DNA of 64,000 bases. Source: Antedon mediterranea. Its lineage: Eukaryota; Animalia; Echinodermata. The notes below the pieces were generated by a model that was not told the DNA's origin, ran no database searches, and worked only from the letters and a program-made list of their open reading frames with translations. A program made the translations under genes and the position numbers. Positions 4,597 through 57,899 of the stretch are shown piece after piece (the first letter of the stretch is position 1; each line of letters begins with the position of its first letter). The DNA is taken from the NCBI RefSeq assembly GCF_964355755.1, contig NC_092674.1, positions 5,146,001 to 5,210,000 on the forward strand, in the 5' to 3' direction.

Positions 4597-5215
4597 TTTA
4601 AACAAATCTAAACATAGGCCTAGTTGGATTGTTTGTTTCTAGTTCTATCCCATACACTATTTAAAACAACAAGTAGAAACAATAGCAATCACAAGAAAGT
4701 ATGAAGGTGGGATATTCCTGGTAAATTTCGCAAAGTAGGCCAACTACTCGAAACTAATTTCATAGATTATCGCTTTCGATCGCTTTATTTAGCGCTTCTT
4801 AGTACGTCTATTAGAAACTCTTTATTACGAAAGTAAAGACAAATCTATGCGAGTTAAATATGCTTATATTAATTATCAACCACATTCTTCAAATTAATTG
4901 AGAAGAACCTCTTGATCGTTGTGTTTGTCCCCGATTCTTTTCATAGTGTCCACTTAATATAAGGATGTCGTTAAGGAGGGGTATTTCCTCTCACCAATTA
5001 CTGCAAATTTGGAAGTGGGTGATGTAATTTAAAGCAAAAAATGGTCAAATTGGTTGCCAGCCAATGGGGTTTTGGTCAAATTTAACCATTTATTTTGTCA
5101 TTTTATAAGTGAAAATATTAAGTGATTAACTTTATTAACAATACAAAATAACATATTCAAAGTCTGATTTAATTAATATTCATTTTTCATGTTTTGGGGG
5201 GACAATACATAATAA

Positions 5216-27175: not shown

Positions 27176-30100
27176 TCAAGGTAAATTTGATACAACTGTT
27201 CTGTAACTTGTCTTTCGACTTCTGAGTTGATACTCGGATTCACTACCACGTGATCTGTTAACGTGATCCATCTCTGCCTTCATTTCACGGTTTATCTCTC
27301 GCTGAAGCTTTAGCGCCATCTTCCTATCCAACGCTTCCTGCTGTAGTCTTCGCTCTTCCTCCGTCTGCAGATTAAGAAATCGTTTGTGCTTTAAAGTTCC
27401 AGGACTTAACGGTTCGCTATCGCTCCTAGTTTTTCCTCTTTTCAGTTTACTTTTCTTTGGAGAAGGCGATTGTACGATTTGCGTTTTCTTTGGTGAAGAA
27501 TGAGAAGACGTTTGTTTATATTTTCGTTGTCCTTCAATTGTTTCATCGCATTTTCTTTTGTTACTAGAAGAGGAATCTGCAGAAGGTTTAAATGACAATG
27601 TTTTATTAAGTATCAAGATCTTATGATCTGGTTTACCTTCAAAGTCATCTTTATCTTCTGGTGTTTTTATGCAACTTCTATCCTCAGACTTTTCTTTCAA
27701 ATTGGTTGTGTTTTCAACATTTTTTAAATCTTCATGTTTTTTCTTAAATTTGGCAAACATGTCCTCGATAGTTTTACAGTTTTTGAAGTCAATATGATGC
27801 TTCCTTCTTCCCTTTTCTTCTGTTTGGTTTCTTTTCTTAATTGTTTTCTCTTCTGAATACAGCTTACTTGGTTGATCTTTATTTTTCATGTGACTTTCTC
27901 CAACTTTAACTTCATCTAATAAAGAAGGAGAATGACTACATATTCTATTTACATAATCAATTTCTTTATCATTTACATCTTCATAATGTCTATCTGACAT
28001 TTCATTATTCTGATCAACTAATTCATTCATATTTTGTTCATTCTCATCAAAATCTTCTTCAACAGTTTTAACTTCTTCAACTTTCCTATTCTTGTCATCT
28101 TTCTGTTGGACAATTTTACTTAAAATGTTTTTATCAATTCTAGTAGTCTTGTTCTCAGACATCAATAATCGTGTCAAGTTTTTCCGTTTCGATTGAGATG
28201 GTGCTTTCGGCTTCATACGATAGACTTTTCCTGGGCTACGCTTCAAAGAATCTGCAGATTCGGCACTAGTAGCGCTCTCTGCTTTTTTATCAAGAAATGT
28301 CTGTTTGCCTGTTGTTGAAACAGGACTTGAAGTACTCATTATAGTACTGTCTTCATGGTTGACAGATAAACCCTTACCAGGACTGTATTCAGTGTCTCTT
28401 TCTGAAGGTGTGTTCACATTAGATAACTTCTCACTACTATTTTCTTGTATAACACTTTTACCAACCATGACAGATTTCGAACCTTCTAAAACTCTGTGCT
28501 CACGCTCCTGTGCCAAACTTAACCACTTATCCATGAGCAATGGACTTTTCTGAAGGATTTCGCTCTCACCTTTCTCAAAAGCATTCTTTAAATTTTTCGG
28601 TGTACTATGAACAAGCGAAGGTGTTTTTCCATCGGCCAGTTTCCGAGCAGCTGTACGAGGCGAGATTACTATTGGTCTGAAATGAGACAACTCATGAGAT
28701 ATGCTATCTGTACTACCAACACTATCTGACCGGAGTGAGTTAATCCTTGGAGCACCTGTAGGAGGCGTCTTTGCAATCAGTGTAAAAGCGCCAGTAGGCT
28801 TTGAAACTATTTCTTCTTGGTTGCTTCTAGTTTCGTCATCAACATCAGAAGGTGGTGAGATGTTTAGAACTGCCATTGGACTCGGTGTAAGATCCTTACT
28901 GTCGAGAATAGTACAATCATCAAATAAAGAGAGTTTATCACTTTCTGCTACAACTAGAGATTCCACCATATCTTCAACTGGTTCATGCTTGAAATTTGAG
29001 TTGGAGTTTTCATCAAATTCCATAGCTAAGTCATCATTGTATTCTTCAACACATACTAATGAAACATCAGCTCTTCCAGTAACTTTGGAAGTGGAAGGAC
29101 CAAGAAACATTGGACTGGTGGTACTGTTGGAATCATCATTAATTACATCCGCTATTTTTATTTGGCTACAACTCACTTCTGGTGAGCTCTTCTCCACATG
29201 AGTAAAATCGTCTGCCAAGAGATTATCTTTGGTGGACTCACCAGACAAGCTGCATCCGGAACCACTACAAGGTCTGCTCTGGTAGTTCTCACCCTGTTGG
29301 GGTTTTTTGAAGAAGGTTTCGATGTTCATAGCTGGAATCTTTGTGTTCTTTTTGGAACGTGGGGTCAGACGTTTGTTTGAACTTTGACTCATTGACATTG
29401 AAGTCTGAAAAAAAAAAAATTGTATTTGAGAGCCACTAAATCACTAACTGAAATTCAACTCACATAGGAAAATGTAGGAAGAATAGAGGGGCATATAATA
29501 AGCATTTTCTGTAAGAAGTAGTGCAAGCTAAAATCCCATTCCTGCACCTTTAGTAAATATTATTCAAGAATTCCCGATTCGTCCTATAGCTCTGTCTACA
29601 ATATCAAACGAGTTTGACAAAAAGAGTGTGATGTGGCAAAAATATGGTAGTGATATTCCCAAACATGGTACTGTAGTGATATGACATCATCATGTCCATA
29701 TATATGCACATCACATTTGTTGTCACATAAAGTTTGATAGTGTAGACAGAGCTTTACAAATCAGGACAATCCTGTATAAATCGGGAAGGAATGTTATGAA
29801 TAGTTACCCTTTCTAGTTGCTCCTGCAGTTTTCTTGCAAACTCTTCATCTCTCTGAGTTTGTTTTAATTTGCCCTTAAAAGGTAATGATAAAAAGAATGT
29901 TTGTAAAGTGATAAATGAAGTTATGATCATGTATAATGATATATAGGATATTGTATAATGATATATAGGATATTGTATAATGATATATAGGATATTGTAT
30001 AATGATATATAGGATATTGTATAATGATATATAGGATATTGTATAATGATATATAGGATATTGTATGATGATATATAGGATATTGTATAATGATATATAG

Positions 30101-31645
30101 GATATTGTATAATGATATGGCAAGTGGATAAAATAATGTAGGTAAGAGTGATATTACATATATAATGTATGATACTTAGACGAGTGTTAGTACTGCGACA
30201 TAGTAGAATTCGTTGTATACCTGTTTTTCTTGTTCTTCTTGAAGCGCCCTCGCTAGTTGTTCATCTAGTCGTGCTTGCTCATCAGCTAAATTTCCAGAAT
30301 TCTAGAATAAAATAAAGTTTCTTTACTTTAAGTTTCTTCAATGACACAATTCAGAAATGTATATTTTTTGTTTCCTGTGGTTGAAAATTGGTTGAAAATA
30401 AGTTTCATCCAGTACATCTGTAAATCAATGGCAGGTGGCCATGTTGAAACAACATGGATACTATCATTCATTTAAAACTTTAAATACTCCACAATAAATA
30501 CATACATGTAGACCAGGTTCTTCAGTCTCAGCTATCTTCCTAGCCAGTTTCTCATCTAGTTCTCTCAACCTCTCTTCTTCTTGTCTACGTTTTTCATACT
30601 CCCTAAGTTCCTCTTCTTGTATCTCTTTGATAATCTTTTGACTCTTGGCTTTCTCTATTTTCTCTTGCTCTTCTTTTTCCATTTGATGCTTAAATTAAAT
30701 TTAAAACATAAAACATATTTAAAACATATTTGATAAATAAAGGCATTTTTATATATCATGGGCTCTTCCATTAGTTTTAGGTACCTTTTTAACTTCCTTT
30801 TCATATTCTTCTCGGACTTCTCCTGGTTCACACACACGGATTGGATTTACAGGCTGAAGAACTACAGAAGAGACAACGGAAATGCGTAATGATTCAAGAT
30901 TCAAGAAATTGTATAAAGTTATAAAAATACCAGCACTTTAGTGGATTATTCCATTAAAAAATAGGGGTAAATTGTATCAAATAAATAGGCCTACAAAGTA
31001 TTTACCCCCTCAGCAAGTGATGTACAGTATGTTATGCTGTATCAACGACATATTTGAATCCCAACAAAATATATGACAAAATTAGACTGCTGATTAATGT
31101 TTATTTTAAGCTAGGTCTAGTCTATGCCATGGAATGGGCCTAGAAGATCCTAATCTAACAGATATTAATTATTATATTACTAGTCTACTACTTCTTTAAA
31201 ACTTTGGTTAAAAAAATCAAAACAATACAATATACTGTAGGCCTAGTCATTTGGCAGGATATCCAGTCATTTGACATTTGACCTATGAATAGGCCTAAAT
31301 ACCAAATAATTTTAAATTTTACGTACCGTCATCCGTATCTTCGCCTTGAAGCCTTTTTCTGATTTGTTCAGGAAAAGTCGCCTGTATTTCATGCCATTTC
31401 GTCCAGTTTATCAACTTATTTAGCTTAGTCTGTTTCCTAGCCCAATTACTGATTCGCAATCGGCAAAGCGGGCAGGTAAAGTTGACCTGCTCAACCGTAT
31501 CGCGAAAACAAGGCCTGCAGAGTTCATGAGAGCAGGGCATTGTAACTGGTTCTACAAGAATACTCATGCATATCGGGCATATACAATCGGCTAGACGAAT
31601 GCCTTGTTCATTTGTGTAACTTGTCTCGGCAATTTTTTCTTCCAT
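27176..31645 (-). CDS. RNF168: E3 ubiquitin ligase RNF168/RNF169 family, ~984 aa, 6 exons (31645-31327, 30861-30785, 30688-30506, 30301-30221, 29873-29808, 29404-27176)
   Basis: N-terminal RING CPICMSILVEPVTMPCSHELCRPCF...CPLCRLRISNWAR, then PGEVREEYEKE, MIU motifs DExLAR, and C-terminal MIU+LR motif QQEALDRKMALKLQ...VNRSRGSESEYQLRS. Confidence 0.92.
29930..30118. repeat. 22-bp minisatellite, about 8.5 units, in an RNF168 intron
   Basis: (tgtataatgatatataggatat)n. Confidence 0.95.
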
Positions 31646-31939
31646 AATGTCAAATTACGCCACAATCATGAAATTTATTTCGAAAACTTTGACAAGACAT
31701 GATAGAACTCGTCTGTTGACTCAAGATTCTGTAATCGCGCTTCGCTCTTTTACGCCCTCAGGAAGTTCATAGACTTCTTAATCCAGAAAGCTGTAGTAAC
31801 TAGATTATCCTATCTAAACACACGGCAGCAGTAAATATATTATTAAATTATACAGCCGATGAATAAACTCTTGCGCAGTTCATCAAAAAGTGTATAATAC
31901 GCCTTTTTCATGGAACGGAAGACATATTCGATCGATGAC

Positions 31940-33234: not shown

Positions 33235-35600
33235 TATTTATTCATAGGAATCACCTTTATATCGGTGTCACACATTTATCAGTTAATGGTGCATCCAATT
33301 TTAAACAGACAAAATTACAAATAACATAAGCCACAAAGTTCTAAATACTAATACATAACATCAAAACAAAATGTAAACTAATTAATTAATTAATTAGATC
33401 TGTATGAAAATACATAATACGTAAATTGTACAATATATATAACTACAAAAATAAAAACAGAACAACAAAAATACAGGATAGGCCTAATAAATAAATAAAA
33501 CATACAGATACATCCTCATAGAGATGTCTGTAGCTTGGTTACTATATTAATCAATTTGTTGAGATAGGTAATGCTGATAACATTGTAGATCTAGCAACCC
33601 ATGCTTTCATTAAATATTTTTTACAATAAAAATCAAAGATTTTTCCTAATGTTTCATTTTCAGTGAATAAATTGTCTAGCATATTAAAAGTGGTGTTTTA
33701 ATTCCTGAGGTCCACAATTAAAATTATCCCGGTACATACTTAATTATTGTCTAACAGAGTTTAATGAAGGACATTTAAATAAAAAATGGTTTACTGTTTC
33801 TTTTTCGTTAGTACTGTACACATCTTACATAATCCTGTGTTATGATTTGACCAGGATTGTCTACGACCCTCAAGATCTAGAGAGTTTGATCTTTCTTTAA
33901 ATTTTAAATTAATGATACTCTTAAAATTACGCTTAAAAGAGAACGACGTTTCGACTCCATCATGGGGTCATTATCAAGTCCAATGAATAAAATATAAAAC
34001 AACAACTAATTAAGTAGCACAAGCCAAGGGTCAAAGTTTAAATAACAAAAGACCTATTGTCTAACATCCTGTCAAATGAAAAGCTTAGCTTTTACAGAGT
34101 CACTTTGTTTATTCAGACTAGGTTTTAATTGTCTGATATACAACATTTCATAGATAAGACAGTCAAATTTGTTTTTGCATTTCCTAAGTATACTAAAACA
34201 TGAATTAATTTTACTGGGATTAACAATCACTTTATGATCCTTCAAATGCTGTCCTATTAAGCATCTACTATGTTCAACAATGCGTTGGTAGAGGTGTCGG
34301 CATGTATATCCAACATAACTTGCATCGCACAAGTCACATTTAAATTTATACACAACACATTGTTGACTTATAATAGTTGGTTTCTTTTCGACTTTCCTAA
34401 TGTTATCTTTAACTTTTTTACTTATGAATACAGGGACAATGTTTTTGTTTATCTTGTGACTTAGTTGGCATAGTTGTCGCTTGACGGAGTTCGCAGATTT
34501 CTGGTCTTTGAATGGCAGGATGATTCGCACTGGTATTTCGGATAGATCTGTTTCATCTTCTGCAGTGTTGTTATTGCTCTCTGCTGGTTTAAAGTTCTGT
34601 ATGGTTGTTGTTATTAGTTCATCTGGATATTTCAGACGCTTAAAAATCTTCCTTAGAATTTCACATTCATCATTAAAAAGCTGGTGGGTCGACGATAGTT
34701 TGTAAGCCCGATTTAACATAGTTATAATAAGTGACCTTTTATACTTGTTGTCAACGTGACTATTGTAGTGTAGCAATAAGCCTGTGTCTGTTGGCTTTCT
34801 GTAAACCCGTGTGTGCAATTTTTCCAAATCTTTGGTTATCAGCATTCCTAGGAAAGGGATTGAATTGTTCACGGCAGTTTCCATTGTGAACGCTATCGCA
34901 GGATGGGTTGTGTTGAGTAAAGCTAAAAATTCATTGGCTGCTTCTAGATTTGGCATGAATACTAGTGTGTCATCAACATACCGTTTGTAGTATTTGGGCA
35001 TGTGGTTCGTAGATTCAAGGCGTTCCTCGATGTGGCACATAAATACATTTGCCATAAGGGGCCCTAGAGGTGATCCCATTGCAACTCCATCAACCTGTTC
35101 ATACAAGTTACCATTAAATTGGAATGTTGCTATATTGAGGAGTACAATTAAATCGTCCTTATCTAAGTTTAGTCCATAATTATCATTGAACCAGTTGTTA
35201 GTAAATGCTTTATCAGCAATAATTTGAATTGTCTCGGTTAAAGGAACATTTGTGAATAAGGACGAAAAATTCTTAAAATTAGTTTTATCTAACAAATATT
35301 GTTCAAGGTTTGGTTCCTTTATACATGTAGTAATAGTATATTCCGTTAACGTTGTTTTGCATGGAATTTTGTTTTGCTTTGGGCCTTTGAAAACCACCCG
35401 TTATGATCAACTTGTTTATTATTTTTCCTAAATGGCTTTATCCAGTTAGTAGATGGTTCTTCATTAAATTTGTCTATAAAATTTGTTTTATTTAAAATAT
35501 CTTTAGTTAATATAGTAATTGTTACAAAATCTTGGCATTCCCTATAACACAGTACCTAATAATAACATGCCTTATAAAAAGTACATGCATTGCTAGTTTT
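33235..35600 (-). mobile_element. Decayed LINE 3' part with CCHC zinc knuckle, interrupted by a Penelope element
   Basis: Removing the Penelope insert restores EQYLLDKTNFKSIINLKFKERSNSLDLEGRRQSW..GLCKMC, then (after a frameshift) ETVNHFLFKCP. A-rich tail near 33240. Confidence 0.65.
33930..35270 (-). mobile_element. 5'-truncated Penelope-like element (RT + GIY-YIG endonuclease), 11-bp TSD
   Basis: ORF 34072-35397: SLFTNVP, GVAMGSPLGPLMANVFM, YKRYVDD, VVYKFKCDLCDASYVGYTCRHLYQRIVEH. TSD tcttaaaatta at 33919-33929 and 35271-35281. Confidence 0.92.
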
Positions 35601-40400: not shown

Positions 40401-43400
40401 GACATCTTACGTTCACAAGAAACTTAGTAATTGGTAAGGCTTTAATTTGATAAAAATTGAGATGCTCAATTGGCTTGACCAGATCTCTGCCCTTGACTCT
40501 CCCTGATACAGTGGTGTAACGGCTATGAGCGCTCACTGGCTAAACACCTGAGCAGTGACCAGAAGAAAAAAGAGGCATTAAAATATGTCGAAAAAGGCTA
40601 AAAACATTCGAGGCCTTCAGCGTTGGAGGGCCAGTTAGAGTTCCTAAATCAGGGCCTCAAACCTCTGCTTTACAACACTGCCATACTAATATTGTTATAA
40701 ATTATGAAATGAAAATGTTCAGTAGCATCACTTTTAACCATCACTTTCTTTTTACTTATTGAACTTGTTACTGTATATAGGATGCCACAATGGAGTGGAG
40801 ATGAGAGTATATGTAGCAGAGATGTCAACAACGAGATTATGTTCTATGAAATACCCAATTTCAGTAAGATAATATTTATACAATTCAAATTTGTTTTGAT
40901 ATAATTCCCCCATAACATATTGTAATTTTATTGTAAAAAAATGCAGCAGTTCAGCTTTTGACTGCAAATGTATTGTTCTTGTCATAATAAAGATACCACG
41001 ATCTAGGAGTGTTCTGGGTATTATATATAATAGACCTCAGATTTAGATTCATAGAAGCCCTTTATCATTTTTTAAACAAGGAGTTGGTGGGGAGAAGGCA
41101 CCAGCCTGACCCAAGCTCTTTACCCACCTATGATTTTATTTATTTATCACAGTAACAATTTCCGTTATGACAACAACATTTCTTTATAATTCTGTAGAGC
41201 AAGCAGCTAATAGACTGCATCTTGAAAAAGTATCAAATTGTTTTATATCACCTGGTGAAAGTCCATTCAAGATAGCAGCTTATGTTCCAGGTAGCAAAGT
41301 AAGCACAATACCCACTTTTAGGCTGGCAAGCTAAAATCGAACCAATCTTCATGACCACCTGGGTAGAGCTGCTTGCCATATTCCTTTTTGTACATAAGTT
41401 AGGGACCCCTCATGGCTAACATATATACAATATTTATTAGTCATATCCATAAGGTGTGACGTAAGAATTGATCCACAATTGCAATTGAACTAAAATTCAC
41501 TAATGCAAACGCTTTCCGTTGAGTCGTCTGTGTACTCGAATGGATTAGACTATCGACTTTGCATTTCGTTGTATGGGGTTAGAACAACTTTAACAACTTT
41601 TTACTTTAAAGCGAGAGAGAGATTGTTTAGAGGGTTAGGTTAAGTTATATTTAGGAAGTAGTTCGGCTATCTTTCATAGTAAGTCCCCAACTTATGTATG
41701 GAAAAAAAATCGCAAGCTGCTTTATTTTAACTGTGTATTTTATTTTTTAGGGTGGGCCATCATTTGTAAGGATGTTTAAGTATCCAAACCTCAATACAGT
41801 CGGAGCAGCGATTGCAAACAAGAGTTTCTTTAAGGCAGATAAAGCAGATGTTTTATGGAATAAAAAAGGTAGCCATATTGATCTATAAAAATGACTTACT
41901 TTCTCAAGTTCTTTTAGGGGTGTAGCTTCAAGAAGCATGAGCGGATGCCAAGTTAAAACTGGGTCTGTGGGTAGAACAAGTCTTCTCGGATAAGAACTAT
42001 AAACTGTAGGTTCAGTGTACACATCTAGCTCATGTGCACTTTAAAGAACCTAATGCATCTTTCGATACGAGTAAGGGGTTACCCCGGTGTAATAGTTCAC
42101 ACAGCCACTGTCACACACAGCCACTACTTAAAAGTAGGTCTTCTAGTAGGCCTCCTGGTTTCATAACAGTCAGTTTGTTGATCTTCTTCTTCTTCTTCTT
42201 CGTATTAGGAGCCAACTTCATATGTGAAGACTCTGCTCCTCCAACTCTGTTTTGCTAGCTCTACTGCATTTGGTTGTGTATTATTGTTCTATTTAGTTAT
42301 TCTTTTACAGAGAGAAACTGACTGCCTTATTTATTTATAATTATTATTATTAATTATTATTATTATTATTGTTATTATTATTATTATTTTTTTTATTTAT
42401 TTTTTTTTTTCCCTTTCTTTTTTTCCCCTTACTTCTCCTTTCACTTTTCTTTCTCTCTTTTCTTCCCTTTCCCTTATCTCTTTTTTAAAGTTTTACTTAT
42501 ATAAATATATATACATGTTTAGTATGAATATATATAATTATTTGATCTATCCTATCTATTATATAATTGTATTGTATTCAGACACCTTGTAAAGATTAAA
42601 AAAAAGAGTAAACTGTACCCAACATTAAACACTATGGAAGTCTACCGTCCGTGCCAACCGCTATCACTTTCCTGGGCCGCTACCTAGGAGGCAGAATAAA
42701 GTAGCTGGATACCCATTTACCCCGCCTCAGCCATCCAGTTGCCCAGCGAGCTGTCACCAAGACAGAGACCCCCAGAGAGTAAGTTGTGACAAGGGGTACC
42801 CTATTTAATTAAGTTTGGACAATATGGGTTTTGAATTCCAGAATAGAAGTACAATTTACAACCTTATCTGGTAGATGATTCCAGTCGATGGCAGTGCGTG
42901 GAAAGAATGAATACCTAAAGTAATCAACTGTTGAGTGAGGAATATGGTATGATTGACTGTTCTCTCTCCGACTGGGTCTACAGGTGTTTTTCATGACCAG
43001 TTTCATATCGGCTGCTACATTGCAGTAGTGTATCTTATGGAACATTAACAGTCGAGCTATCCTCCTCCTCTCTTCCAAGGTTTCCCAACCAAGGACCTTC
43101 ATCATTTCAAGTTTACCAATTAAATTGGAATTATATGGGTCCCAGACGGTGTTAGAATACTCTAATAGAGGGCGTACACAACATTTATATGCAAGGCCTT
43201 TTATCTGTTTGTTCCTGACACACAAGTTTCTTCGCAAAAAGTTGAGTGCATTATCTGCCTTGGAAGTTATGGCATCCACATGGGAGTTCCACTTCATATC
43301 TTGGGAGATGTTGACGCCAAGGTATTTAGCAACATCAACACTCTTTATTTCGCTTCCACATAGGGTGTATTTCTGCTTTACTTTCTTCTTCTTCTTTCTT

Positions 43401-46400
43401 GTTATTGTGAGAAGCTCACTCTTTTCTGGGTGGAACTGCATTTGCCATGTCCTACCCCATTCTTCAAGTTTGTGGAGATCAGACTGCAGGAGACCGCTAT
43501 CAGTATTACTTGTAATGGTGGTATATATCATGGTGTCATCAGCAAATAACCGGATAGTAGAGTTGAGACCATAGCTTATGTCATTGATATAAAAAAGGAT
43601 TGTTGAACTTACGGCGATGAAGATGAAGTGGATCACTAAATATATAGGCTTATTTGAGTATGTTTTACAGTAGGTAAATGAATCTTAATCTTTGTGATTC
43701 CCAGGTTCCGCTGTTTTAATTATTACATCGACAGAGGTTGATAAGACTGGTGCATCTTACTACGGTGAACAAGGCCTACATTATCTTGCTGCAGATGGTG
43801 GAAGCAGCGGGGTTGCTCTTGGTAGGTTGAAATGTCCAATTATCCCAAGTATTGTAATCGAATTACATATCAAAGTGTCAAAATATCTTTTTCACCAGAC
43901 AAAATGTCTCAATTCAGTGGCGGAATTTGGAAATAGTGGGGCCCATACCCTAAAAGTAGTGAAATGAAGTTCTGAACTTAATTTGATGTCCTATCTTTTG
44001 CATTACAATTTGTGAAATTTAGAAGGGGCCCGGGCCATTGAAATGGATGTCCCAATGAAGAAAACATCATCGATTTTTTAAAATTATTAAAATAATTTAT
44101 ATTTTGGATTTTCGTTTTGTATTTCCAGGTAAAAAGGGACCAATTTACAGTGTTGATTGGAATAACAATTCTACAGAATTCTGTGCTGTCTATGGATGTA
44201 TCCTTTTTTGACCGATATAAGATTTAATTTACATTATTTGATAGATTAGAATTACCGTAGTTTTCTTAACAAGATCATTAGTCATGCCTGCCAAAGCGAC
44301 GTTATTCAACCTCAAGTGTGAACCAATCTTTGACTTTGGAACAGGACCACGCAATTCAGTATTCTTCAATCCTCAGGGAACTAATATCCTTTTTGTATTG
44401 TCTTCCCTTTTAAAGTTTGATGTTTAAGGAGGCACAGACCAGTGAACGTATCACCAATCACACTTAGGTTAAGGGAAACACTTACCCTTAAAATTAAGAA
44501 AAATCTCCTATCTAAGTGAATACAATTTAAGGGTTTATTTATTGAGTTAAGTGAAATACTTAATATTTAAGGGAAATATCTCACTTTGATTGGTGAATAT
44601 GGCCACTAGCATTCAGAAGATTTATTATTGTGTACACTTACGATATCTTATCTAACTTAAATCCATGTGGTTAAATGTACTTTATACTCTTATTGGTGTC
44701 CCATTCTACAGGCCATTAATTTTGGCCATATACTAACATTAATACTGTATGTATTGAAGATTAAAAAATGTTATTGCCTTAACTTACCATCACTTCTATG
44801 CATTGCTGGCTTTGGCAACCTTCGTGGTGATATGGTAAATATACTTCCAGATTTTGAAAATGTTCTGAAGAAAAAAATAATAATAATAATATTGATTAGA
44901 ATTGTTTAATTTCATTTAAAATAATCAACCTAATTTTGTTTTATTTTAAAGGAATTTTGGGATCGAAAGCAATTGAAATTAATATCGAAACCTCAGGCAT
45001 CAGATTCTACTTTCTTCCAATGGTGTCCAGATGGAGAGCATGTGGTGACCGCGACTTGTTCACCTCGTCTACGACAAGACAATGGGTGAGATTTTCAGAC
45101 ACAGTATTAATGTTAGAATATGGAAAACAAATAATGGCTTGTAAAAAGACTCTAGCATGGGACACCAAGACAATGTTTGAGTATTTCTAGATGGTACTAT
45201 ACAGATAATGTGGCTTGGTGGTTATGATGCTTGTCTACCAATCCAAGGGTCCTGGGTTCAAGTCCTGTCTCCACTCCACTGCCAAAGACTTGTATTAAGA
45301 CTTTGTTTATGTAGAGCATCTTATGTATATGTTTGTGTTGTGAACAGGATTGCCACCTTTAAGAATTCATGTATGCTTAGCCTTTTGCGATTTGCCCAAA
45401 TATATGATTTTCAAAATGTTTAAATGTGGAGACACAGTACAGAGAATCAGGTGATTAATTTATATATGAATGTATGGGTTTCCAGGTCATGTGACTACCT
45501 CATTGATTTAACAATCGTTTTTATATTGCAGATTTAAAATTTGGCATTACAACGGCGAACTACGAAACACGTTTCAGTATAGTGCTGGTGATGAATTATG
45601 GGAAGTTGGTTGGCAGCCGTTCCCATTGGGTGTTTTCGTTGCTAAGCCAATTGTAAAACCTACTGTATCAGTTGCACAAGCTGAGGCAGCAAAACCTGGA
45701 GTGTATCGACCACCCGGTGCTAGGGGTAAACCCCCACCCAAGAAAATTGTAAGTTGGCGGTTTGATATTTTTATATTTTAAAGATATAGCAGACCTCCCA
45801 GGAATCGTAGTTTGGTGTAGTTTTTCAATTGTTATTGGACTCTTGTTGTTTGGTCATTCTTTCAAAAATTCTCTCGATATTTAACTTTTCTAAGTTGAGA
45901 CCTCTAATGTAGTATTAAGAATTTATGTATTGAAATGTTGAATCAATTTTAAAGATGTGTTGTCCCCAAAAATCATGAAAAGTAAAGATTTATAAGGTCA
46001 GACTTTTAATAGCCCATTTTGCAGTTATTCACTTCCATAGAAAAAAAACAGAAACAAAATAATGATTTCATTTATAAAAAGACAAATAAACAGTTAGATT
46101 TAAATAAGTAAATAATTTGTTTTCCAATTCAATTCTGGTCAAAGTCAATAACTATTATGTGACATTAAAATGGCATATTCAACAAAAAAAATTAAAACTT
46201 TTTTTTTAGTCCGAGTTAGAGCCTGCTGAAAATATGAAGAAAATTGCTGTAGAGGGTGTGTATGTTTTCGATTATTAGTAAACATTTTATTGTACATTAT
46301 AATATATCTTTGCTATTAAACATTCTTGATATTTTCATTCAGAATTTTACACAAATTATAATTTTATTTTTAGAATCTAATTTATCGAAGTCAGCTTTGA

Positions 46401-49400
46401 AAAATAAAAGAAAAAGAGAAGCCAAAGCAAAGGCTAAAGATCAACAAGCACATGACGGTACTTTAGTAAGTTTTAAGTTTATTATATTATAATGGCTCTT
46501 AAACCTTGTAATGGATTCAAATGACACTTTCTGCTACCATATTTAACTCACTATGCACTTTCCTATAAGCATTAATTGTTACAAAGTATTTCAAAAAGTT
46601 CATCAAAGCATGCTAGCTTTTATTTGTTATTAACTCATTTTAGATGTCACGGTCCAGTGATCAGCGTGATGCAATAGCTATGACGAATTATATTGTGGGA
46701 GGAGCTACAACTCGACAGCAGCCAGTCAGTGAAGGCAATGCAGATGACGACAAGAAGATTAAAGCATTGAAGAAGGTAATGTTATTAAAAAATTTAAATA
46801 AATATTAAAAATGAATTTGATTCGATATTCAACATTCTTCCATACACTTATGCATGTGCATGTTCGTGTAAGCTCAGCGGTTTTGAAGTCAAATGTCAAA
46901 TAAGACCATTTTAATGCATGTCAAGACGTTTTAGTTGTTGAATTTAATGCTTACATGAAAGGGGCATAGCATACAAGATGGAAGAATAGAAATGTTCAGA
47001 TTAAATACAGCGATTTTTAAAAACAGACAAAAACAAAGCAATAAAGGTATTCTTAAATCTTGCACAAGAAAAGAACACATCTGTATCAATTGTATTTACA
47101 AAACATACAATTGTGTTCATATGGTCCCTATGTAGGCCTAGATTAAAAAATCCCAAAATTATATTTAAGTGAAAATGTAGTGGAAAAAATCCATACTACA
47201 TACACTGCCATACATTCTTCAGGTAGTTCTATATGGCCTCTAAGTCCCCTTTATAATCTAGCTAGGCCCCACTATACAGATCAATTTGATAGGCCTAGTA
47301 GTAGTATATGTCCTCCAAGTCCCCTTTATAATCTAGCTAGGCCCCCACTATACAAATCAATTTGATATGCCTAGTAGGCCTAGCTTTTAAACTTACCTTC
47401 TTTACCCAGTTTGATAGTAATTTTGGTGTATGATTGTATTCTTTATACTTTTACTTCTGTTGTCTGTTCACATGATGTCCTAATAGCCATTATTTTACTC
47501 AAATAATCAATTAGTGCATCATCTTAGTTCACCTGTCAAACTCACACTCACATGTTTATTTTGACTTCATTGTCTGCTAAAATCTCTCTTCTCTGATTTG
47601 TTGAATCTTCAAAACTCAACAGTTATCATACAGACATACATTAATGAAATGTTATATAACTCTGTAAAAAAAATCAGTTCTTCATTGTTTTACTAAATAA
47701 TTTTATCAAAAGTTCATTGATCTAGACTGATTTAACATTAATAGTAATATTTTTTATTTTCTTTAAATTATCTGTGGTTCAAGTAGGCCTGTTTATTTGA
47801 CACATTGCATTAAAGATGTATTGTCCCCCTGAAAAATTAATTCTTAACAATTTTTCTGTGGAATATGCCATTTCAATGTCACCAAATAGTTATCCACTTT
47901 GACCAAAAATTGATCCAAAAAAAAGTATTTACTTAAACAAATTTTGTATATTAATATTTTTGTCCTCAGTGAGGAAATTCGGATTAGGCCCTCCACAGAC
48001 CCACGGCAGCCAGCAGTGCAGCGCCTACCAGATTAGGCAATGAGAGTAAAGCATCTTGCCTAAGGATGCAATTAGTATGGTACAGATAACCTCGAACCCA
48101 TGCCTATCACATGCTAGTCCGATATTACCATTACACCATCACTCTCCAGTATATACAGCACCCGCCACGATTTCTAGACGGTCTCCCATCCAGAACGCAA
48201 CCGGGCCCAACGTTGCTTAACTTCGGTGATCTGACGAGAACCGGTGTTTCAACGCAGTATGACCGTAATGTAATTTAAAGCAAAAAATAGTCAAATTGGC
48301 TGCCAGCCAATGTGTTTTTGGTTGAATTTAACCATTTATTTTGTAATTTTGTAAGTGAAAACTTTTTTTCCAGTTTTTTTTCTACAGGAATGATTAACTT
48401 TATTAAAGCTACTAAATAATGTATTCAAAGGCTCATTTTATTAATTTTTATTTTTCATGTTTTTGGGGGAATACATCTTTAAGTCAAGTCAATGAGTTGG
48501 GCTTGATTCAGTACTAGCCAAAGGAGTTCACTCACTAAGATACTAATCAATTTTGAAGGAGAAAGGGAAAAAGTTTGTTGCCCCCCCCCCCCCCATATTA
48601 CTGTCAATGCTAGTTCAAACATTTCTCATTGTTTTTAGTTAGTAAATCTTGTTATGAGGAAGTATAAGTTTTATTTAAGTGTACACTCAGTTTCAATCAA
48701 ATATATTTTTAATGTGTTTACTTTCAGTTTTATTTTAGCTTTCTTGTTGATATAGTGTCTATTGTTGAACCTTCTGTTTTCTCTATAATATTTAGTAGAA
48801 TACCGTACACAATGAACGTTATGTAAGCCTTCAGGCCCAACACAATTATGCAATAAAGAAATAATTCTATGTTTGTGCAGCTTTACATGCTTTTTTGTTT
48901 TCTTTCTTTTCTTTGTTAGCTTTACTTCACTTAGGAAGGAAGTAAAGAATTTAAAACTAGAAGTCTGCTTTCTATCAATAATATTATTATTACTTGTATT
49001 ACAATACTGATCTCATATGACCCTGCATAAGTACAATATTTGATATTTGAGTGCAATAGGAAGTTGACCTACATTATTCTCTGGCCTTTATAGGATACCT
49101 GGATTTGTTTTTTGCATGAAGGGAGCTTTTGTTAACTTAACTTTAGTTTATACTGTAGTTTCTTTTAATGTAGCTCCACCATTTGTATTTTCAAAACTAG
49201 ATCATTTCAGCTCAAGTATAGGTATAACATGCCATATGTGTCAAAATGTTTTTCTTTTTACAAATAATACCCTTTAACATTGCCTCTAAAATCTCCAGAG
49301 TTTATACACCGGGGCGTCAACACCTGCTAATATAAAAGGGGTCTAAAGTGCCTCAGTGGAGAAGAATGTTGTTGAAAGGGTGTAACATCTAAGTCAACAG

Positions 49401-49708
49401 CGCACTGATCTTCATGAAATAGTGCTATATAAATGTCGCATTACGTAGAGTCTAGAACCCAAATGCGTTTAGTTCAATAATTCACTGAATTCATATCACT
49501 CATATTTGACAATATAATTTATATTAATATATTATAGTAAAAATATTTTTGTTCATTTTACGGTTCTTTTTTCTTCTAGAAATTGAAAGCTATTGAGAAA
49601 CTTAAAGAACAGCAACAGCAAGGAAAGGAACTAGAGAAAAACCAACTAGATAAACTTAAGACAGAAGAAGCTCTTTTAAAGGAAATACGACAGCTTGAGA
49701 TATCCTAG
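37425..49708 (+). CDS. EIF2A: Eukaryotic translation initiation factor 2A, ~595 aa, 18 exons (37425-37452, 38442-38529, 38878-38949, 39974-40092, 40334-40433, 40781-40863, 41198-41298, 41751-41868, 43705-43821, 44129-44197, 44282-44383, 44794-44834, 44952-45085, 45532-45748, 46210-46255, 46374-46465, 46644-46775, 49580-49708)
   Basis: FSPKGSYLATW, ANKSFFKADK, EVDKTGASYYGEQGLHY, EFCAVYGFMPAKATLFNLKC, AGFGNLRG, YRPPGARG, LSKSALKNKRKREAK, KLKAIEKLKEQQQQGKELEKNQL. Phases sum to an open 1788-nt CDS. Confidence 0.95.
38069..38402. mobile_element. Harbinger-type MITE, TAA TSD, in eIF2A intron 1
   Basis: taa|tgcacttgtcaattgtatgaccc...gggtcatacaattgacaagtgca|taa, with ~50-bp TIRs and tgacgca repeats. 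Confidence 0.85.
40509..40680. mobile_element. hAT-type MITE (CAGTGG...CACTG)
   Basis: Uninterrupted relative of the split copy at ~50008-51568. Confidence 0.65.
41950..42201 (+). mobile_element. Deu/Nin-domain SINE with (TTC)n tail
   Basis: tcggataagaactataaactgtagg...gcactttaaagaacc core shared with ~1400-1470; simple-repeat tail. Confidence 0.6.
42335..43610 (-). mobile_element. 5'-truncated CR1/L2-group LINE, antisense in eIF2A intron 8
   Basis: ORF 42809-43636: RLFADDT, LQSDLHKLEEW, KYLGVNIS, RPLLEYSNTVWDPY, SFFPRTAIDWNHLP. Apparent in-frame deletion after KLEM; (TAA)n tail at ~42340-42390. Confidence 0.9.
44198..44281 (+). other. U12-type GT-AG intron of eIF2A
   Basis: 5' site GTATCCTTT, branch TTTTCTTAAC about 11 nt before AG; splicing restores YGF|MPAK. 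Confidence 0.9.
44384..44793 (+). other. U12-type AT-AC intron of eIF2A
   Basis: 5' site ATATCCTTT, branch TGCCTTAAC (44775-44783), 3' AC; splicing restores NPQGTI|LCIAGFGNLRG. Confidence 0.92.
45205..45430 (+). mobile_element. tRNA-derived SINE
   Basis: A box TGGCTTGGTGG and B box GGTTCAAGTCC at tRNA-like spacing, followed by non-tRNA body. Confidence 0.6.
47955..48268 (-). mobile_element. SINE with 5S rRNA-derived head, tRNA-derived second unit, CORE-like domain and LINE-like tail
   Basis: Minus strand: 5S-like tacggtcatactgcgttgaaacaccggttctcgtcagatcaccgaagttaagcaacg...ggatgggagaccg, then TGGTGTAATGG/GGTTCGAGG boxes, then tccttaggcaagatgctttactctc. Sits inside MITE B (47814-48478). Confidence 0.75.
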
Positions 49709-50088
49709 GTATATATAGATATGTTTTGTCTGTAGATATCAACATACAAATTGAACAATTACAATTAAATCTAAATATGACTAATGTAAGAGATACAATT
49801 TCTGTTACATATTAGTTTGATGTCATAGGTCAAATGTGTATGACATGTCACACACAACATGTGTGGCGTGCCATACATATTAACTGACAAACTGAAATTA
49901 TAAAAACGGTGATAAACTTGTGAATATTGTGAACACGCACCTTTTTCCGGTTTGATTACATTTATGAGAAAAATTAAACATTTATTTAAGATTAAAACTA
50001 TTATTAGCAGTGGCGTAATGGCTATGAGCGCTCGCTGGCTAAACCCAGGAGCCCCTAAGCAGTGCCTAGAGGAAACAACAGGCATTAA

Positions 50089-51465
50089 AGTGGAGCTACA
50101 CTCAGACTTTCTCAGCTTATATTATGTTTAAGTATGTTTAATTGAAAGTGATTACATAAAAAAAACCAGGAAAAATACGGAAATATTTTCCAAAAACTCA
50201 TTTCTAAAAAAATCGGTCAGAAAATAGTGTTTTAACAAATTACAGTTTTTCAGTAACTTAGGGGTTATTAGTTTACAATACGTCGCGAAACGCGTTACAC
50301 TTAGCGACTGACGCGTTTTAGTCGCCGGTTCAACGCATTGATGAAATGTCTCCCCTTTGGTAAATTATGTGTCGAAAAATGGGGAATAAATTTTATACAC
50401 ACAATTAATACGATTTGTTTAGGCCTAAGTAATATTTCCGATAAGAATGTCAGTATAATTTACATGTAACCTCATGATTTTCACTGTACAACAACAACAT
50501 AATAATAATCTTATCAGATTGCTTTTAACTTTAAGCTAGGGCTAGGCCTAGCTAAGCCGTCTGCTCAACCAAGCTAGCCTTGAATTTTTGTCTAGAGGCC
50601 TATGTATTCATAGGCATGGTCGTTTCGCCCCATTTATCGTTCCTGGGTTTTCTCGCACATTAAGAATTGTGAAACACACAATCCTATACAGAACAAGAGT
50701 AGTAAAGCGATGTGCAAGCTTAGACCTGACTGAAAAGCAACTATTCAGGCACCCTATCATGGCCCATGGGTAGGCCAAGGTCGGGTGCCAGCAAAACAAA
50801 CTTCACTGCTGTCAGCCTAGCCTAGCTAGAGGCCAAGCAGCAACGGTACATACCTACACTCTAGTAGGCCTAGGCCTAGCTTTATTGAATATATAGCTAC
50901 GTCTTTCTCAAATCTCGTTAAATTTGACATTTTAGTAATAGTCTCATAATCACATTATTACACTGTGAAACATAATAGGGTCATATTCAGAATGTTTTAA
51001 TATACTTTTCGCCCGTCAAAAATAACATCGCGACAAAATAACAGATCGCCAGCACTGCAGTAGTGTGATTATGAAAAATGTCACGTGATCGTACTCCCTA
51101 GCAAAATAAAAAACCCAATTGGACCCGAACGGGGGAAAGTGTCTATTTACGCAAAATTGCGCAATGTATACGTGATAAAAATACCAGAAATAGAAAGATC
51201 TGGAAAAATTACATAAATATACATTTTACATTTTTTTTTTGGTGAAGAAATGAATTTTTTAGGATTATTCAAATATACCCCCCTTTTGCATGTAAAAGAA
51301 TAGGAAATTACAAGGTATCCCCCCAAAACGCAAAAAGGCGTGATTTTCAAGAAAATCGTACTCATTGAAAAAAAATTTCAAAAAAATATGAAGTATAAGG
51401 GATGATATTTTTAAATAATAGTTGAAATGTATGAGAAATAGTAATTTTCTGGGTGGAGCTCCACT
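50089..51465. mobile_element. Kolobok-type non-autonomous element, TTAA TSD, inserted in a hAT-type MITE
   Basis: ggcattaa|agtggagctacactcag...ctgggtggagctccact|ttaaaatatg. The empty site ggcattaaaatatg is visible at ~40574. Confidence 0.85.
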
Positions 51466-51839
51466 TTAAAATATGTTGAAAAGGGCTAAAAACGGCCGAG
51501 GCCTCCAGCGTTGGTGGGCCACTTAGGGTTCATAAACAAGGGGCCTCATGTCTCTACGATAAGCCACTGTATATTAGCAACATTATAACAAGATGTTTAA
51601 TTTTAAAGTATAAATGACATTCGTCAGTATTCATAATATTCAGTCCTACTAAATTTATATTTTGTTGAATTTCATTAGAAAAATACATGAACAGGCGGCC
51701 ATGTAGTTATCGTTTTAAAAATATTAAACTAATTTAATCTCTGTATGAGTCATATTTTATAACAAAAAAGTGTTGCTAAAAACAATAAACATAATTTACA
51801 TTTACAATTGTTTTATTTAGCTTGCAAGGAAATATAATT

Positions 51840-52220
51840 GCTCAGGCCACTCTTCCTTTGGTCTGCCCAAGGCACTCTTCCCTGGTCTTCCAAAGGCACT
51901 CTTTCGTGGTCTGCCCAGGGCACTCTTTCCTGGTCTGCTAAGGGCACTCTTACTTGGTCTGCTCAGGTCACTCTTCCCTGGTCTGCTCAGGTCACTCTTC
52001 CCTGGTCTGCTCAGGTCACTCTTCCCTGGTCTGCCCAGGGCACTCTTCCCTGATCCGCTCAAGGGACTCTTCCTTTGGTCCGATCAGGCAGCTCTTTCCT
52101 AGTCTGCCCAGGACACTCTTTCCTGGTCTGCCCAGGGCACTCTTCTTTTGTCTGATTTAGGCAACTCTTCCCTGATCTGATCAAGGGGCTTTCCATTGGT
52201 CTGCTCAGGACACTTCCTCC
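51840..52220. repeat. 24-bp GC-rich tandem repeat, about 15 units
   Basis: Unit ggtctgcccagggcactcttccct; gives 8-aa periodic ORFs on both strands. Confidence 0.9.
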
Positions 52221-53186
52221 TCAAACCAATCAGTTCTTCATTACACAAGAAATGATTGAAAACGATTCTCAATGGCAATTTAGTTACCAGGATTGTGTCC
52301 TCAACGACCACTGTCGCGCCCACTGTCTCTCCCTAAGTCACCATCTCCTCACTCTTCCTCTTTTCCATAACTTTTTACAATAAAGTGAGCTACAACTAAA
52401 TATCCGATTCAATATGTTTTATTAATTTATCCAATACTTCACTTATTTTTTACAAACAAAACCAATACATTGAACTTATCTTACTTAAAAGTTTAAATTA
52501 GTGACCACACTTGACCACTATTTCCGGGTCTGACGAATATTTATCTCACTTTGTACATTTTAAATAATACTTTTTTTAAATAGATAGAAACCACATTGTA
52601 ACCGTTAGTCAACCATAACACCACAGCAATCGGATTATAAATATATAAATACTATGTTTACAATAAATAAATTAGTTTTTAAAACTTAACAATAATAGTC
52701 ATTTAGTAATGCTTGTTTTTGAATAATTTCAATATGAAATGACGAGGTTTTTTTTACAACATTTGAAGTATAACATTAAATGAATTACGGAGTTTTCAAA
52801 TGTGACGCTTATTCCCTGTCAAACGGAAAATGCTAGCTTTGTTTATTAATATGTTATAAATATTATACATTTCTTTTTAATCTAATACATTTTTTTTCCA
52901 TTTAATAAATAAATCAAGTTTTTGGGCGCGTTACAATAATTATATTATTATCAAACAAATATTAAATAATTTCAGTTGGAATGTTTACAAATTTTAAATC
53001 AAGTTTTTGGGCGCGTTACAATATATTATTATAATAGGCCTACAAATATTAACTGATTTCAGTTGGAATGTTTACAAATGTTAGTACTTTAGCTAAGCGG
53101 CAAATTATCCGCCGCTTTTCATTGGTCAAATTACTTGCGTTGCTGGTTATACGTCATAGCGTTGCGCGTACTACTTCTTCCCAAGA

Positions 53187-55535
53187 CTAGATTGTGACGT
53201 GTATGAAGAAAACGTTGAGGGAGTCACCCATCTTGTCTTCAATGTCTGAGTCTGTCAACTGGTACAAAGTAATATCATGGGTCGTACGATCGTACCCCAG
53301 ATAATAACCTGTAAAAAGAAAAATATAGAATTGTTGGATGTCAAAAATATCATTAAAACCGAGTCAGTGGGTGAAGATGTAATTCTTGATACTAATATTT
53401 GGAATTCACTCTTGCAGACTTTCTCGTAAATGTACGGTGTAGGAGAGAAACAAATGTTTTCTTAAAACTGTGGAATTATGAAGCGCTGCGGTATTTATAT
53501 GTATTTTTTTCCTTTTTAATTGATATTGTAGAAATTCGAAAATTAGGAAGGCTTACCTGAATTTGTAACCGACTCAAAGTAATAATGGTCAAGGGTCGAA
53601 TCATAATGCCTGTAGAATAATTTGTTGTCCGTTGATTGGAAAAGTTGTGGCTCAGTAGCAACATCCTGTAACAAAAAAAATCAATAAAATTGTCAGTGCC
53701 GATGTAAAATGAAGGAGAGAAAAGTGTCGCATATCTTTTCATTCATTTCATTTTTTATTGTTCCATATAAAATAAATAAACGATCAAGAAAAAGTAAGAA
53801 AAAAAATGGTTAAAACTTAGTTTATGCAGGGAAGAGTTAAATTACAATTTAACTCTTCCCTGGTTTATGTGTGGAATCTCAAATAAGCCAACAAAGGCTT
53901 TAAGGCTGAGATTCCAAAAGACATTACATTGTGCATTGTAACGTACAATTGCTTTCTAAAAAAATATCTATCTCTAATATTTTTTTTATGACGTCATAGT
54001 TCTTAGTTCCCAGAATGCTTCATGAAATAAAAGTTACTCTCCATCTTGATCTCTAAAAGTAGTTGGTCGACATGTCATTTCTTTCGCAACTAATAATTGC
54101 AATATCACAAAAGTACAGTATACGGTAGTACTTCTATTTACGTTATTACTTTTCTGCCACAATCCCATCCTTAAACTGTTTATTAAAATGTTACCAGCTC
54201 GTTAGAATGATAGCATGCATAAGGTTAGGCCTATAGGTAATATACTTACCACCAAAGAAATGGAAGTAGATGAGGGAGCCGACACGTACTTGGACGTGTC
54301 TACGTGCTTGAATGCCACTGCGGTTAGGCTGTTGGCCAAGTCTGTGTACGTGCTCACAAAAAATTTACCTGAAAATAATCGTCAGTATTAAGTTTATGTT
54401 GTGGTCATTCGTATTCATATTCAATATCACAGTATTCTCATTTGTGCACAATTTTGTTTCATGATATTTCCCCCCAGCCCTTCTCCAAACACAAATGATA
54501 TTAGCGCTTCCCCATTAACAGAGGGATCCACGGGTTGAGGCCTACAACAACTGATCAATCATCTTCCATAACCCTCACTATTTTAACCTACCACCATCAT
54601 CTTATTCTCATAATTAATTTAGTCAATCCGTTAGGCCTAATTGTACTTTATGCTAATTACGTCCAAGATAGGGCAAACATTTGACCAATCAAATTAGCCT
54701 TGACTTTGAATTATCGATATGATTCATTCTCGCCATTATTCTTTTTATCAACACCATCTTCCTTTCATCACTAAACATTGTCTAAGATTTGAAAATAAAA
54801 ATAGGAAAATCTTACATTTATCTTCGCTTGTGGTAGCTGTCATTTCAAGAGCATCGTTTTCAACGGCTAGGTATCTCTGGTCGTTGCCATTTGGATAATT
54901 TCGCATGTAGAAATTTTGCCCCTGAGTACTCTGAAGTTCTGCAAACAGACTCTGAGTTATGACTTCTTCGTTGACGAGCGATTCCTGTTGGTCTTTTGAT
55001 TCGTTGTTCTGAAATAGAAGTGTTGTTTCAGTGATTAGGGCTGGCGTACCTTCTGTGACTTGAACGATGTAGGCTTACGCGTGGTTCCCACTAGAACACA
55101 ACGTAACGCAGCGACGTATCGACGCAAAGTGATGTATTGCGTAATCGCAAGTGGGAACCGACGACGCACCTTTGTTGTAATCGCAGGTTTGATTTCACGC
55201 AGGCGGGGGCAAACACAATTATTAGAAGTGCATTTGCTTACGTTGCGTATTGCGTTACGTTGCGTCGCTAGTGGGAACCAAGCTTTAGAGACCTAGGCCA
55301 TAGTTGTATGTTTATTCAGCCTTCTACAAGGGTCTATTACCGTACTTACCTTCATATTTGTGGTATTGAGACATGCGTCTTGATCCCCGATCGGTATATC
55401 ATTGCCGCAGGTTGCTGGTGGACTTTGTAACTTTGCTAAATACTTCTTCACTTGAGAAAAGGAAAACACATTTCCAGATTTGCGGGTTGTGTTGTTGAAT
55501 TCATTAGGCGTGTTGATTTCGTTGGTGTTCGACAT
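53187..55535 (-). CDS. IL-1/IL-18 family-like leaderless beta-trefoil cytokine, 242 aa; coding exons 55535-55350, 55008-54816, 54368-54250, 53665-53557, 53308-53187
   Basis: All GT-AG, phases 0,1,0,1, 729 nt open. C-terminal ~160 aa LFAELQST..FYMRN..DQRYLAVE..CKFFVSTYTD..TAVAFK..YVSA..ISLV|DVATEP..KLFYRH..YYFESVTNSGYYLG..DKMGDSLNVFFIHV parallels IL-18. No signal peptide. Confidence 0.8.
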
Positions 55536-56286
55536 CTTTGTATCCTGCACAATAAATAACACACAATTAATACTTGTGAATAACTTCTGCCACAACAATA
55601 GTAACGTACTGTACCTAGGCCTACAGTATAATATAGTAAACATTAACAAGAAATCGCTCTACCATCCCTAACATTATTCTTCTGCTTCTAAAACTAAAAC
55701 TTTGTAGGTTTACAACATTAATAATAATGAACGAATTAATGAATACCGCATGCCTTGGTTTATGACTGAATATGGGTCTTTTGGCATTTTAACGACTTTT
55801 TAATGACTTTTTAATGATTTGATTTACTGTGTACTTGTATAATATAGCCTATACTATTGTTTTAAATTCTGTTAAATGTTTACTTTGTACGTTGTTTGCA
55901 GAATTATTCAGCCGTTGGCTGCCTTCTCTTTGTACTATTTATGTGTTTTTATGAATAAATACCTACATATAAAAGAAGCCGAAATTAAATAAGATATGCG
56001 TATAAATCTTGAAAATAATCTCGTCTTTTAAAAAGACATTGAATAGAAACCCATATCCAAGCTCATATATAGGCCCATATAAAAACTAATCTCAACCATG
56101 AAAGAATCTACGCTTGAAGTCGGAAGCGCAAATCGAAAGACTTTCGAAAAACAGTTTTCCGAATTGAAATCTCGAAAACGTAGATGCGTAGGTTGCTGTA
56201 CTGGAATCTTGGAGGAAATAGGCCATAGCGCTGAATTGTAAAACAATGTTAGTAAAAATGTTGAAACAATTAATTTAGCTACTTAC

Positions 56287-56420
56287 TGTGATTCGTTACT
56301 TATTACTTTACTTGGGGTTTTTAACTTCAGCGTCTTTAACTTCAGCTTCTTGAGTATGAATTTTCACAAAAATGTGCTGCTTTTATACGCTTTAGACATC
56401 CGGAATATGTATGACGAAAG
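56287..56420 (-). promoter_or_regulatory. Putative promoter and non-coding first exon of the IL-1-like gene
   Basis: Minus-strand TATAAAA at ~56381-56387, ETS-like CCGGATGT just upstream, donor ca|gtaagt at 56286, acceptor tgcag at 55545. Confidence 0.5.
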
Positions 56421-57899
56421 TCTATTTAAAACATGTTGTTATAGCAAGTTCAAACGACCTGTTAGATATGCATTTTGATCTCATTATAAAATGATACATC
56501 CGTTTGACTAACAATACAAATTTTGGCACAAATATTAGTTTAGAGGTCATTCATGCACAAAGTATCAATGAAGCTTGACGTACGTTTGATTTGACCAATC
56601 GCAAGTGATAGATTATTCGCATATTCGCTTGTCATTGGTCACTTGCATTTGCGTCTATGTCGTTTCGTTGCGTCTTCAAGCTTGAAGGCCTGTTTTTTAC
56701 TACGAAGATAACGATCGACGATAAATTTATAACCTTGCATTTTTCTTAGATGCAACAAAATAAATTCGAAACGTTTTTATTCTAGAATTATAGAATAACC
56801 ATTTGTGCTGTCTTTAATATAACTAATATTTTTTAAAGTCATGATCAATAAGAACAATAAAATCGTTGTATCGTCAATATATTTCTCTTATCATGACGTA
56901 ATTGTATTGGACGTGTCACATTAAAGCTTGGTTCCCACTAGAACGTAACGCAAGGACGTAAACGCAACGCAAGCGTTTTAACCAATGACAAGCGAAGTTA
57001 TAGACAGTTAGCAATCACAAGCGAATAAGCCATCGCTTGTGATTGGTCAATTCACTTGCGTTGCGTTACGTCCTTGTGTTGCGTCGCTATTGGAACCACG
57101 CTTTATGTTTATCAAAGGCAGTATAGATGGTTATCATAAAGTTCTATGGTTTTAGATTTCTTTTGTTTTATGTAGAAAAAATGCATATTATCTATTTATC
57201 GTCGATAGCGTCCTAGTGTAAATGGGCCTTAAGTGTGGTTCCCACTAGAACGCAACGCAACGTAACGCAGCGACGTATCGACGCAAAGTGATGTATTGTG
57301 TAATCTCAAGTGGGAACCGACGACGCAACAGTGCTGCAAAAATCGCAGGTTTGATTTCACGCAGGCGGGGGCAAACACAATAATTGGAAGGGCATTTTCT
57401 TACGTTGCGTAGATTGCGTTACGTTGCGTCGCTAGTGGGAACCAAGCTTTAACGGCTTCCACTATCCAACATTTTAGTTGACGTAGCGAAATAAAATGTA
57501 TTAAAATCAAATGGCAAACATTGTTCTTTTATATGAATGTTGTAGCATCAATGATGTGTCGTAGAAGTTGATTTAACATAGGATTTAGTCAGGAGGGTGA
57601 GGTTACACCGTGTCCATGAATGCTAGGCCTAAACGGAAAGAGGAAGAGAATTAAGCTATTGTAGGCCTACATCCGTTTATGTAGACCTATTGGCTACACA
57701 ATTACACACAGGGCTACATTAAGTGAAAGTTTCTATACCAAACTTAGAAATCTCTCTCTTCAGAAAAAAAAAATACGTGAGCCTTTAATGATAATGATTT
57801 CTTTTAAAGTGATCTAGACCTACGGTAATACAAACTAAAAACATAATTTTCTTTCCAACAAAGAGGCTACTGATAGTGATTTACTTTTTCAAAAGTCTG

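Follow-up and report, generated by a model that had tools for sequence, protein, structure and literature searches.

The question raised by the locus treated here is whether a small spliced gene of the crinoid Antedon mediterranea encodes a cytokine of the interleukin-1 (IL-1) superfamily and, if it does, which branch of that superfamily it represents. The gene lies on the minus strand between positions 53187 and 55535 of a stretch of 64,000 nucleotides (nt) of contig NC_092674.1 (RefSeq assembly GCF_964355755.1, positions 5,146,001 to 5,210,000), which is called the window and whose numbering is used throughout. An earlier note, written from the DNA letters alone, had read it as a hidden pro-cytokine of the IL-1/IL-18 type. 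The gene is real and spliced, and it is very probably a member of the IL-1 superfamily, as had been proposed; this identity is supported by Pfam, by the ESM Atlas, by a profile search of PDB sequences, by a sequence motif, by intron phases and by synteny, together with 52% identity to AjapIL-1.1, a published protein of the crinoid Anneissia japonica. Judged by its sequence, it belongs to the PDZ-less subset (AjapIL-1.1 type) of the published invertebrate IL-1 family and falls outside the strict definition of IL-1anc as PDZ plus trefoil. The family and its crinoid counterpart were already published in 2025-2026 (Fontenla-Iglesias et al., Nat Ecol Evol 2026, PMC13736523; preprint PMC12338702), so that the caveat of the note about prior reports of invertebrate IL-1 was borne out.

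Gene structure and splicing

Five exons make up the coding part of the gene. Coding exon 1 (55535-55350, residues 1-62) starts with the ATG at 55535, in an exon that begins at an acceptor at 55544, and encodes an N-terminal extension without signal peptide or PDZ domain. Coding exon 2 (55008-54816, residues 63-127) contains the beginning of the predicted beta-trefoil, placed near residue 84 (54945) by the Atlas model, and is followed by a phase-1 intron; coding exon 3 (54368-54250, residues 127-166) is followed by a phase-0 intron (V166|D167) that was also located in the PDB-profile alignment. Coding exon 4 (53665-53557, residues 167-203), again followed by a phase-1 intron, carries the FES motif of the IL-1 family as defined in PMC13736523 (residues 196-198, 53570-53578), and coding exon 5 (53308-53187) encodes residues 203-242 and the stop. 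Joined, these exons form an open frame of 242 amino acids (aa) followed by TAG, and the four coding introns (341, 447, 584 and 248 nt; phases 0, 1, 0, 1) are all of the GT-AG type.

All five exons rest on the assembled frame and on contigs from one of four public sequencing runs (X1-X4) placed on 52500-57500, the interval to which read support refers. The X1 contigs join exactly across each of the four introns at a depth of 933-1554, compared with about 30-46 for unspliced intron contigs, and no intron-skipping contigs were found in the DNA-like runs X2-X4. The evidence for splicing comes from a single run of a single study, which is presumed to be RNA (no listed run is recorded as such); X1 behaves as RNA in that its contigs carry spliced joints. 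A RefSeq protein (P0001, two accessions), found with exon 2 as query, is identical to the 242-aa product. The exon model of the note, with its GT-AG junctions, is thereby confirmed, whereas the gene was not hidden: RefSeq already held the protein, labelled as uncharacterized, and it is this entry that gains a name. Absence of a signal peptide was also upheld as far as hydropathy goes, since Kyte-Doolittle windows of 9 residues reach no more than 0.56 over the first 45 aa and no hydrophobic leader is present.

Searched singly, none of the five coding exons had a Pfam match. A second IL-1-like gene was not found within the window, where tblastn and a profile run over 487 six-frame segments returned only the exons of the gene itself.

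Relation to AjapIL-1.1 and the IL-1 profile

Two database searches returned one real homolog, XP_033118264.1 of Anneissia japonica (P0002; LOC117117896; 168 aa), which matches the Antedon protein at E 5e-50 and with 52-54% identity over the trefoil as a one-way best match. This protein is AjapIL-1.1 in Table S2 of PMC13736523, where it is listed as a member of the invertebrate IL-1 family with PDZ absent ('n'). The two crinoid proteins share an identical HYYFESVTN block and both lack a PDZ domain and a hydrophobic leader. They differ at the N-terminus, as the published model begins at Antedon residue 73; the Antedon protein has 72 extra residues there, 62 of them on a spliced, RNA-supported coding exon, which hints that the Anneissia model may lack its first coding exon. 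Two further candidates (P0003 and P0004) were rejected as chance matches, being coiled-coil repeat proteins that match residues 27-93 alone. Pfam detected no PDZ domain in the Antedon protein, nor any PDZ, Ig or TIR domain in 45 upstream minus-strand segments of at least 35 aa, a search that is weak for single exons and that reaches the end of the window 8 kb upstream; the likely 5' UTR, too, contains in-frame stops. Linkage to an IL-1R-like gene and to GCC2 would be a further mark of the subset. A search for longer, PDZ-bearing relatives gave no match among 4532 candidates, a weak negative given that two such crinoid proteins are listed in PMC13736523.

The best of the two Pfam matches of the Antedon protein is IL1 (PF00340; E 0.0057, 16.8 bits), and IL1 is the only match of the Anneissia protein (E 0.00038, 20.5 bits). 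When a two-sequence crinoid profile was compared with PDB sequences by HMMER, all six matches at E<=10 were IL-18 chains, and the FES of residues 196-198 falls on that of IL-18 in the alignment. The collinearity with IL-18 that had been proposed by eye was recovered in part: four of its five blocks are present in the HMMER alignment to PDB IL-18 (E 0.16, not significant alone), and the aligned stretch ends before the fifth, C-terminal block.

Predicted fold

Residues 84-242 (~18 kDa) are predicted to form a beta-trefoil of the IL-1 type. In the ESM Atlas comparison, in which the structures on both sides are predictions and the Antedon model has a predicted local distance difference test score (pLDDT) of 0.60, this region ranked IL-18 first by features (0.94, with 190 of 256 features in common) and aligned to two IL-18 clusters at template modelling (TM) scores of 0.78 and 0.77, compared with 0.65-0.70 for the eight other trefoils listed. 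The layout of ~80 plus ~160 aa suggested in the note agrees with these alignments. For the whole protein, IL-33 and IL-18 were tied at the top (0.95).

An alternative is that the trefoil comes from a different family (FGF-like, fascin-like, ricin-B lectin or fungal-type protease inhibitor) and resembles IL-1 by convergence. AlphaFold models of the Antedon protein are too poor to settle the fold, and on one of them FGF, fascin and ricin-B trefoils tie with IL-18. The profile comparison called for in the note gave IL1 as the best Pfam match, below the cut-off, and neither crinoid protein matched FGF, fascin or ricin at E<=10; the top IL-1-family clusters of the Atlas share 172-190 of 256 features with the query, and lectin and inhibitor clusters share 104-122. 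The FES motif, the intron phases and the linkage to EIF2A described below all favour IL-1, and convergence from another trefoil family is considered very improbable.

Several results nevertheless weigh against membership of the IL-1 superfamily and are gathered here. Both Pfam IL1 scores lie under the 25-bit cut-off, the PDB-profile E-values for the IL-18 chains are 0.16-0.86, and a single-sequence phmmer search returned only a thioredoxin (E 0.047), which was dismissed as noise along with the C5-epimerase match in Pfam. An unrelated bacterial cluster came third by Atlas features for the whole protein, and the Atlas model, of middling quality at pLDDT 0.60, has a TM margin of about 0.08 over lectin and FGF trefoils. 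Nothing in the phase pattern (1, 1, 0) of vertebrate IL-1beta corresponds to the fourth intron, which is of phase 1 and follows FES. On the matter of low scores, HMMER is stated to fail on invertebrate IL-1 members (PMC13736523).

Intron phases, EIF2A and the position relative to IL-18

In the PDB-profile alignment, the V166|D167 phase-0 intron falls at the K|E step of the ISFKE block of IL-18. We take the IL-18 gene to have an intron at that very step. The phase-1 and phase-0 introns of the Antedon trefoil, both upstream of FES, match the last two of the three phases reported for vertebrate IL-1beta (1, 1, 0; PMC4880838), which bears out the intron argument of the note as to phase; three to five trefoil exons and two central introns of conserved phase are described for the IL-1 family (PMC13736523).

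The next gene, tail-to-tail with the IL-1-like gene, is EIF2A, whose synteny with IL-1 is reported to mark these loci in ambulacrarians (PMC13736523). Its exons were read on the plus strand over 43698-49708 (the gene starts further left; last exon 49580-49708), and three of the five exon segments scanned match PF08662 (E 1.9e-12 to 4e-06). One X1 contig (contig 1, 3765 nt) covers 52500-53117, which leaves 3146 of its letters; the final exons of EIF2A, taken together with the DNA that follows as far as 52499, come to 3144. This arithmetic of lengths within 49580-53117 hints that the 3' untranslated regions (UTRs) of EIF2A and the IL-1-like gene may overlap as convergent transcripts.

IL-18 recurs so often in these comparisons that the gene might be thought to belong to the IL-18 line specifically, rather than to be a PDZ-less offshoot of IL-1anc. 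IL-18 is at the top of the PDB-profile search and of the Atlas domain searches, the V166|D167 intron falls at a step where IL-18 presumably has one, and IL-18 and IL-33 are noted in PMC13736523 as only distantly related to other IL-1s. If the assignment were true, the split between IL-18 and IL-1beta would predate the divergence of echinoderms and chordates. Similarity ranks, however, are no substitute for a tree, and IL-33 equals IL-18 for the whole protein. The authors of PMC13736523 report repeated loss of PDZ and could not resolve cross-phylum trees; moreover, the gene adjoins EIF2A, which marks the IL-1anc locus in ambulacrarians. An IL-18-line gene in this sense is judged quite improbable. 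A fuller version, in which the protein would be a true IL-18-line pro-cytokine composed of a short pro-piece and a trefoil that by sequence scores against IL-18, with the pro-peptide exon missing from the Anneissia model, is likewise improbable. Membership of the PDZ-less subset of the invertebrate IL-1 family is retained as the preferred assignment.

Comparison with known systems

The Antedon protein resembles the IL-1anc family in its predicted C-terminal IL-1 trefoil, the FES motif, the leaderless N-terminus, the two central introns and, as in other ambulacrarians, the linkage to EIF2A. It differs in lacking the N-terminal PDZ, called the distinguishing feature of the family by the authors, and so fits the small PDZ-less subset that they describe (PMC13736523). 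With vertebrate IL-18, IL-33 and IL-1beta (PF00340, PF15095) it shares the blocks collinear with IL-18, the predicted fold (TM 0.78), the layout of a leaderless precursor and the order of a phase-1 and then a phase-0 intron in the domain; in contrast, its sequence scores below threshold, an additional phase-1 intron follows FES, and a match to the IL1 propeptide is absent.

IL-1 was discovered in invertebrates only recently, and the Antedon gene leaves the 2026 picture (PMC13736523) as it was. The name Antedon does not occur in the text and seven supplements of that paper or in the text of the preprint PMC12338702. Searches of the literature outside subscription papers gave nothing relevant on Antedon mediterranea and IL-1, and for an invertebrate IL-18 ortholog only PMC13736523 and its preprint were relevant. 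What is new here amounts to small additions: the species, the RNA support, the 72 N-terminal residues absent from the Anneissia model and the lean towards IL-18. The protein is a useful seed for profiles bridging invertebrate and vertebrate IL-1 and, because it is small, RNA-supported, PDZ-free and detectably similar to IL-18, lends itself as a ligand to assays of receptors and of cleavage.

Transcript ends and repeats of the locus

By consensus match, a TATA box (TATAAAA, 56381-56387, minus strand) is located 30 nt ahead of an initiator-like element (56359-56353) with a likely start site at 56357. A likely non-coding first exon of 71 nt (56287-56357, minus strand), without ATG and with in-frame stops, would end at a GTAAGT donor at 56286; X1 contig ends at 56286, 56315 and 55515 and a depth of 529 at 56290 fit this exon. 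Its splicing from the 56286 donor to the 55544 acceptor is predicted, the joint itself being absent among the contigs listed. At the other end, a putative AU-rich 3' UTR extends over 52423-53186 (minus strand), with AATAAA at 52847 and 52423. ATTTA occurs 12 times in the first 687 nt after the stop, compared with a window mean of 2.7 and 4.0 in shuffles, a count reached by 0.5% of sliding windows.

Coding intron 1 harbors a high-copy element similar to a miniature inverted-repeat transposable element (MITE), with terminal inverted repeats (55074-55288), recognized by repeat comparison and by a read depth of 10^4-10^5. Copies of the same MITE-like family with common terminal inverted repeats are found at 56921-57105 and 57228-57452, upstream of the promoter, and a fragment lies inside the 3' UTR (53100-53143). 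Between EIF2A and the IL-1-like gene, a tandem array comprises 15.5 copies of a 24-nt unit (51839-52214).

Proposed mode of action

The Antedon protein is probably an infection-induced agonist cytokine that leaves the cell by a route other than the Golgi and signals through an Ig-TIR receptor; the basis is a partial analogy with IL-1anc of sea urchin and with the IL-1/IL-18 of vertebrates. An AU-rich mRNA, inducible and short-lived, would be translated into a leaderless protein that is made and stored in the cytosol, and a protease may then trim part of the 83-residue extension, with aspartates 46, 51, 53 and 68 as candidate sites. Release would take place through lytic death or pores, after which an Ig-TIR receptor on the receiving cell would read the trefoil and start NF-kB/AP-1 signalling. 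We infer the N-terminal cleavage implied by the term pro-cytokine from the same analogy. Sea urchin IL-1 paralogs are inducible by Vibrio; induction in adult coelomocytes is consistent for two of the five, and SpurIL-1.3, which lacks PDZ, undergoes cleavage by caspase (PMC13736523).

Other observations count against an inducible, processed agonist. According to PMC13736523, SpurIL-1.3 shows no induction, cleavage was seen in one of five sea urchin proteins and in none of three lamprey proteins, and binding of ligand to receptor is undemonstrated for any IL-1anc. The ATTTA-rich span is AT-rich, partly duplicated DNA, and its length of 687 nt was chosen arbitrarily. No NF-kB consensus was found upstream between the gene and 59 kb of the window.

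This last absence would also suit a receptor antagonist or intracellular regulator of the IL-1 family; by binding to the Ig-TIR receptor, such a protein would weaken signalling by its PDZ-bearing paralogs. Fish nIL-1F, a member of IL-1anc, is reported to antagonise IL-1beta (PMC7144542), and the IL-1anc authors raise the possibility that a lamprey member without PDZ acts as an antagonist (PMC13736523). On the other side, the Antedon protein lacks a signal peptide, unlike the secreted IL-1RA or PmarIL-1.1, and its AU-rich 3' end suits a pulse-expressed mediator, both features being compatible with an antagonist all the same. An antagonist is regarded as unlikely, and the agonist cytokine remains the preferred proposal.

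Other genes and elements in the window

The plus strand carries, some 49 kb away from the IL-1-like gene, an IL-17-like cytokine gene of two exons (3464-3756 and 4404-4589; the join is predicted from sequence), whose product has a hydrophobic N-terminus. Its second exon matches Pfam IL17 (E 3.5e-10), and perfect NF-kB consensus sites occur upstream of it at 2554-2564 and also at 4709. Further minus-strand features lie between the two cytokine genes. Exons at 20034-24076 with a weak RIX1 match (E 0.084) and an acidic tail presumably belong to a gene resembling PELP1; a RING-finger gene at 27176-31654 (Pfam zf-C3HC4, E 4.9e-10; 754-codon open frame) is one that we take to resemble RNF168. Retroelement remains consist of a reverse transcriptase (RT) plus GIY-YIG element at 34072-35400, which we assume to be Penelope-like, and an RT fragment at 42809-43684 within an intron of EIF2A.
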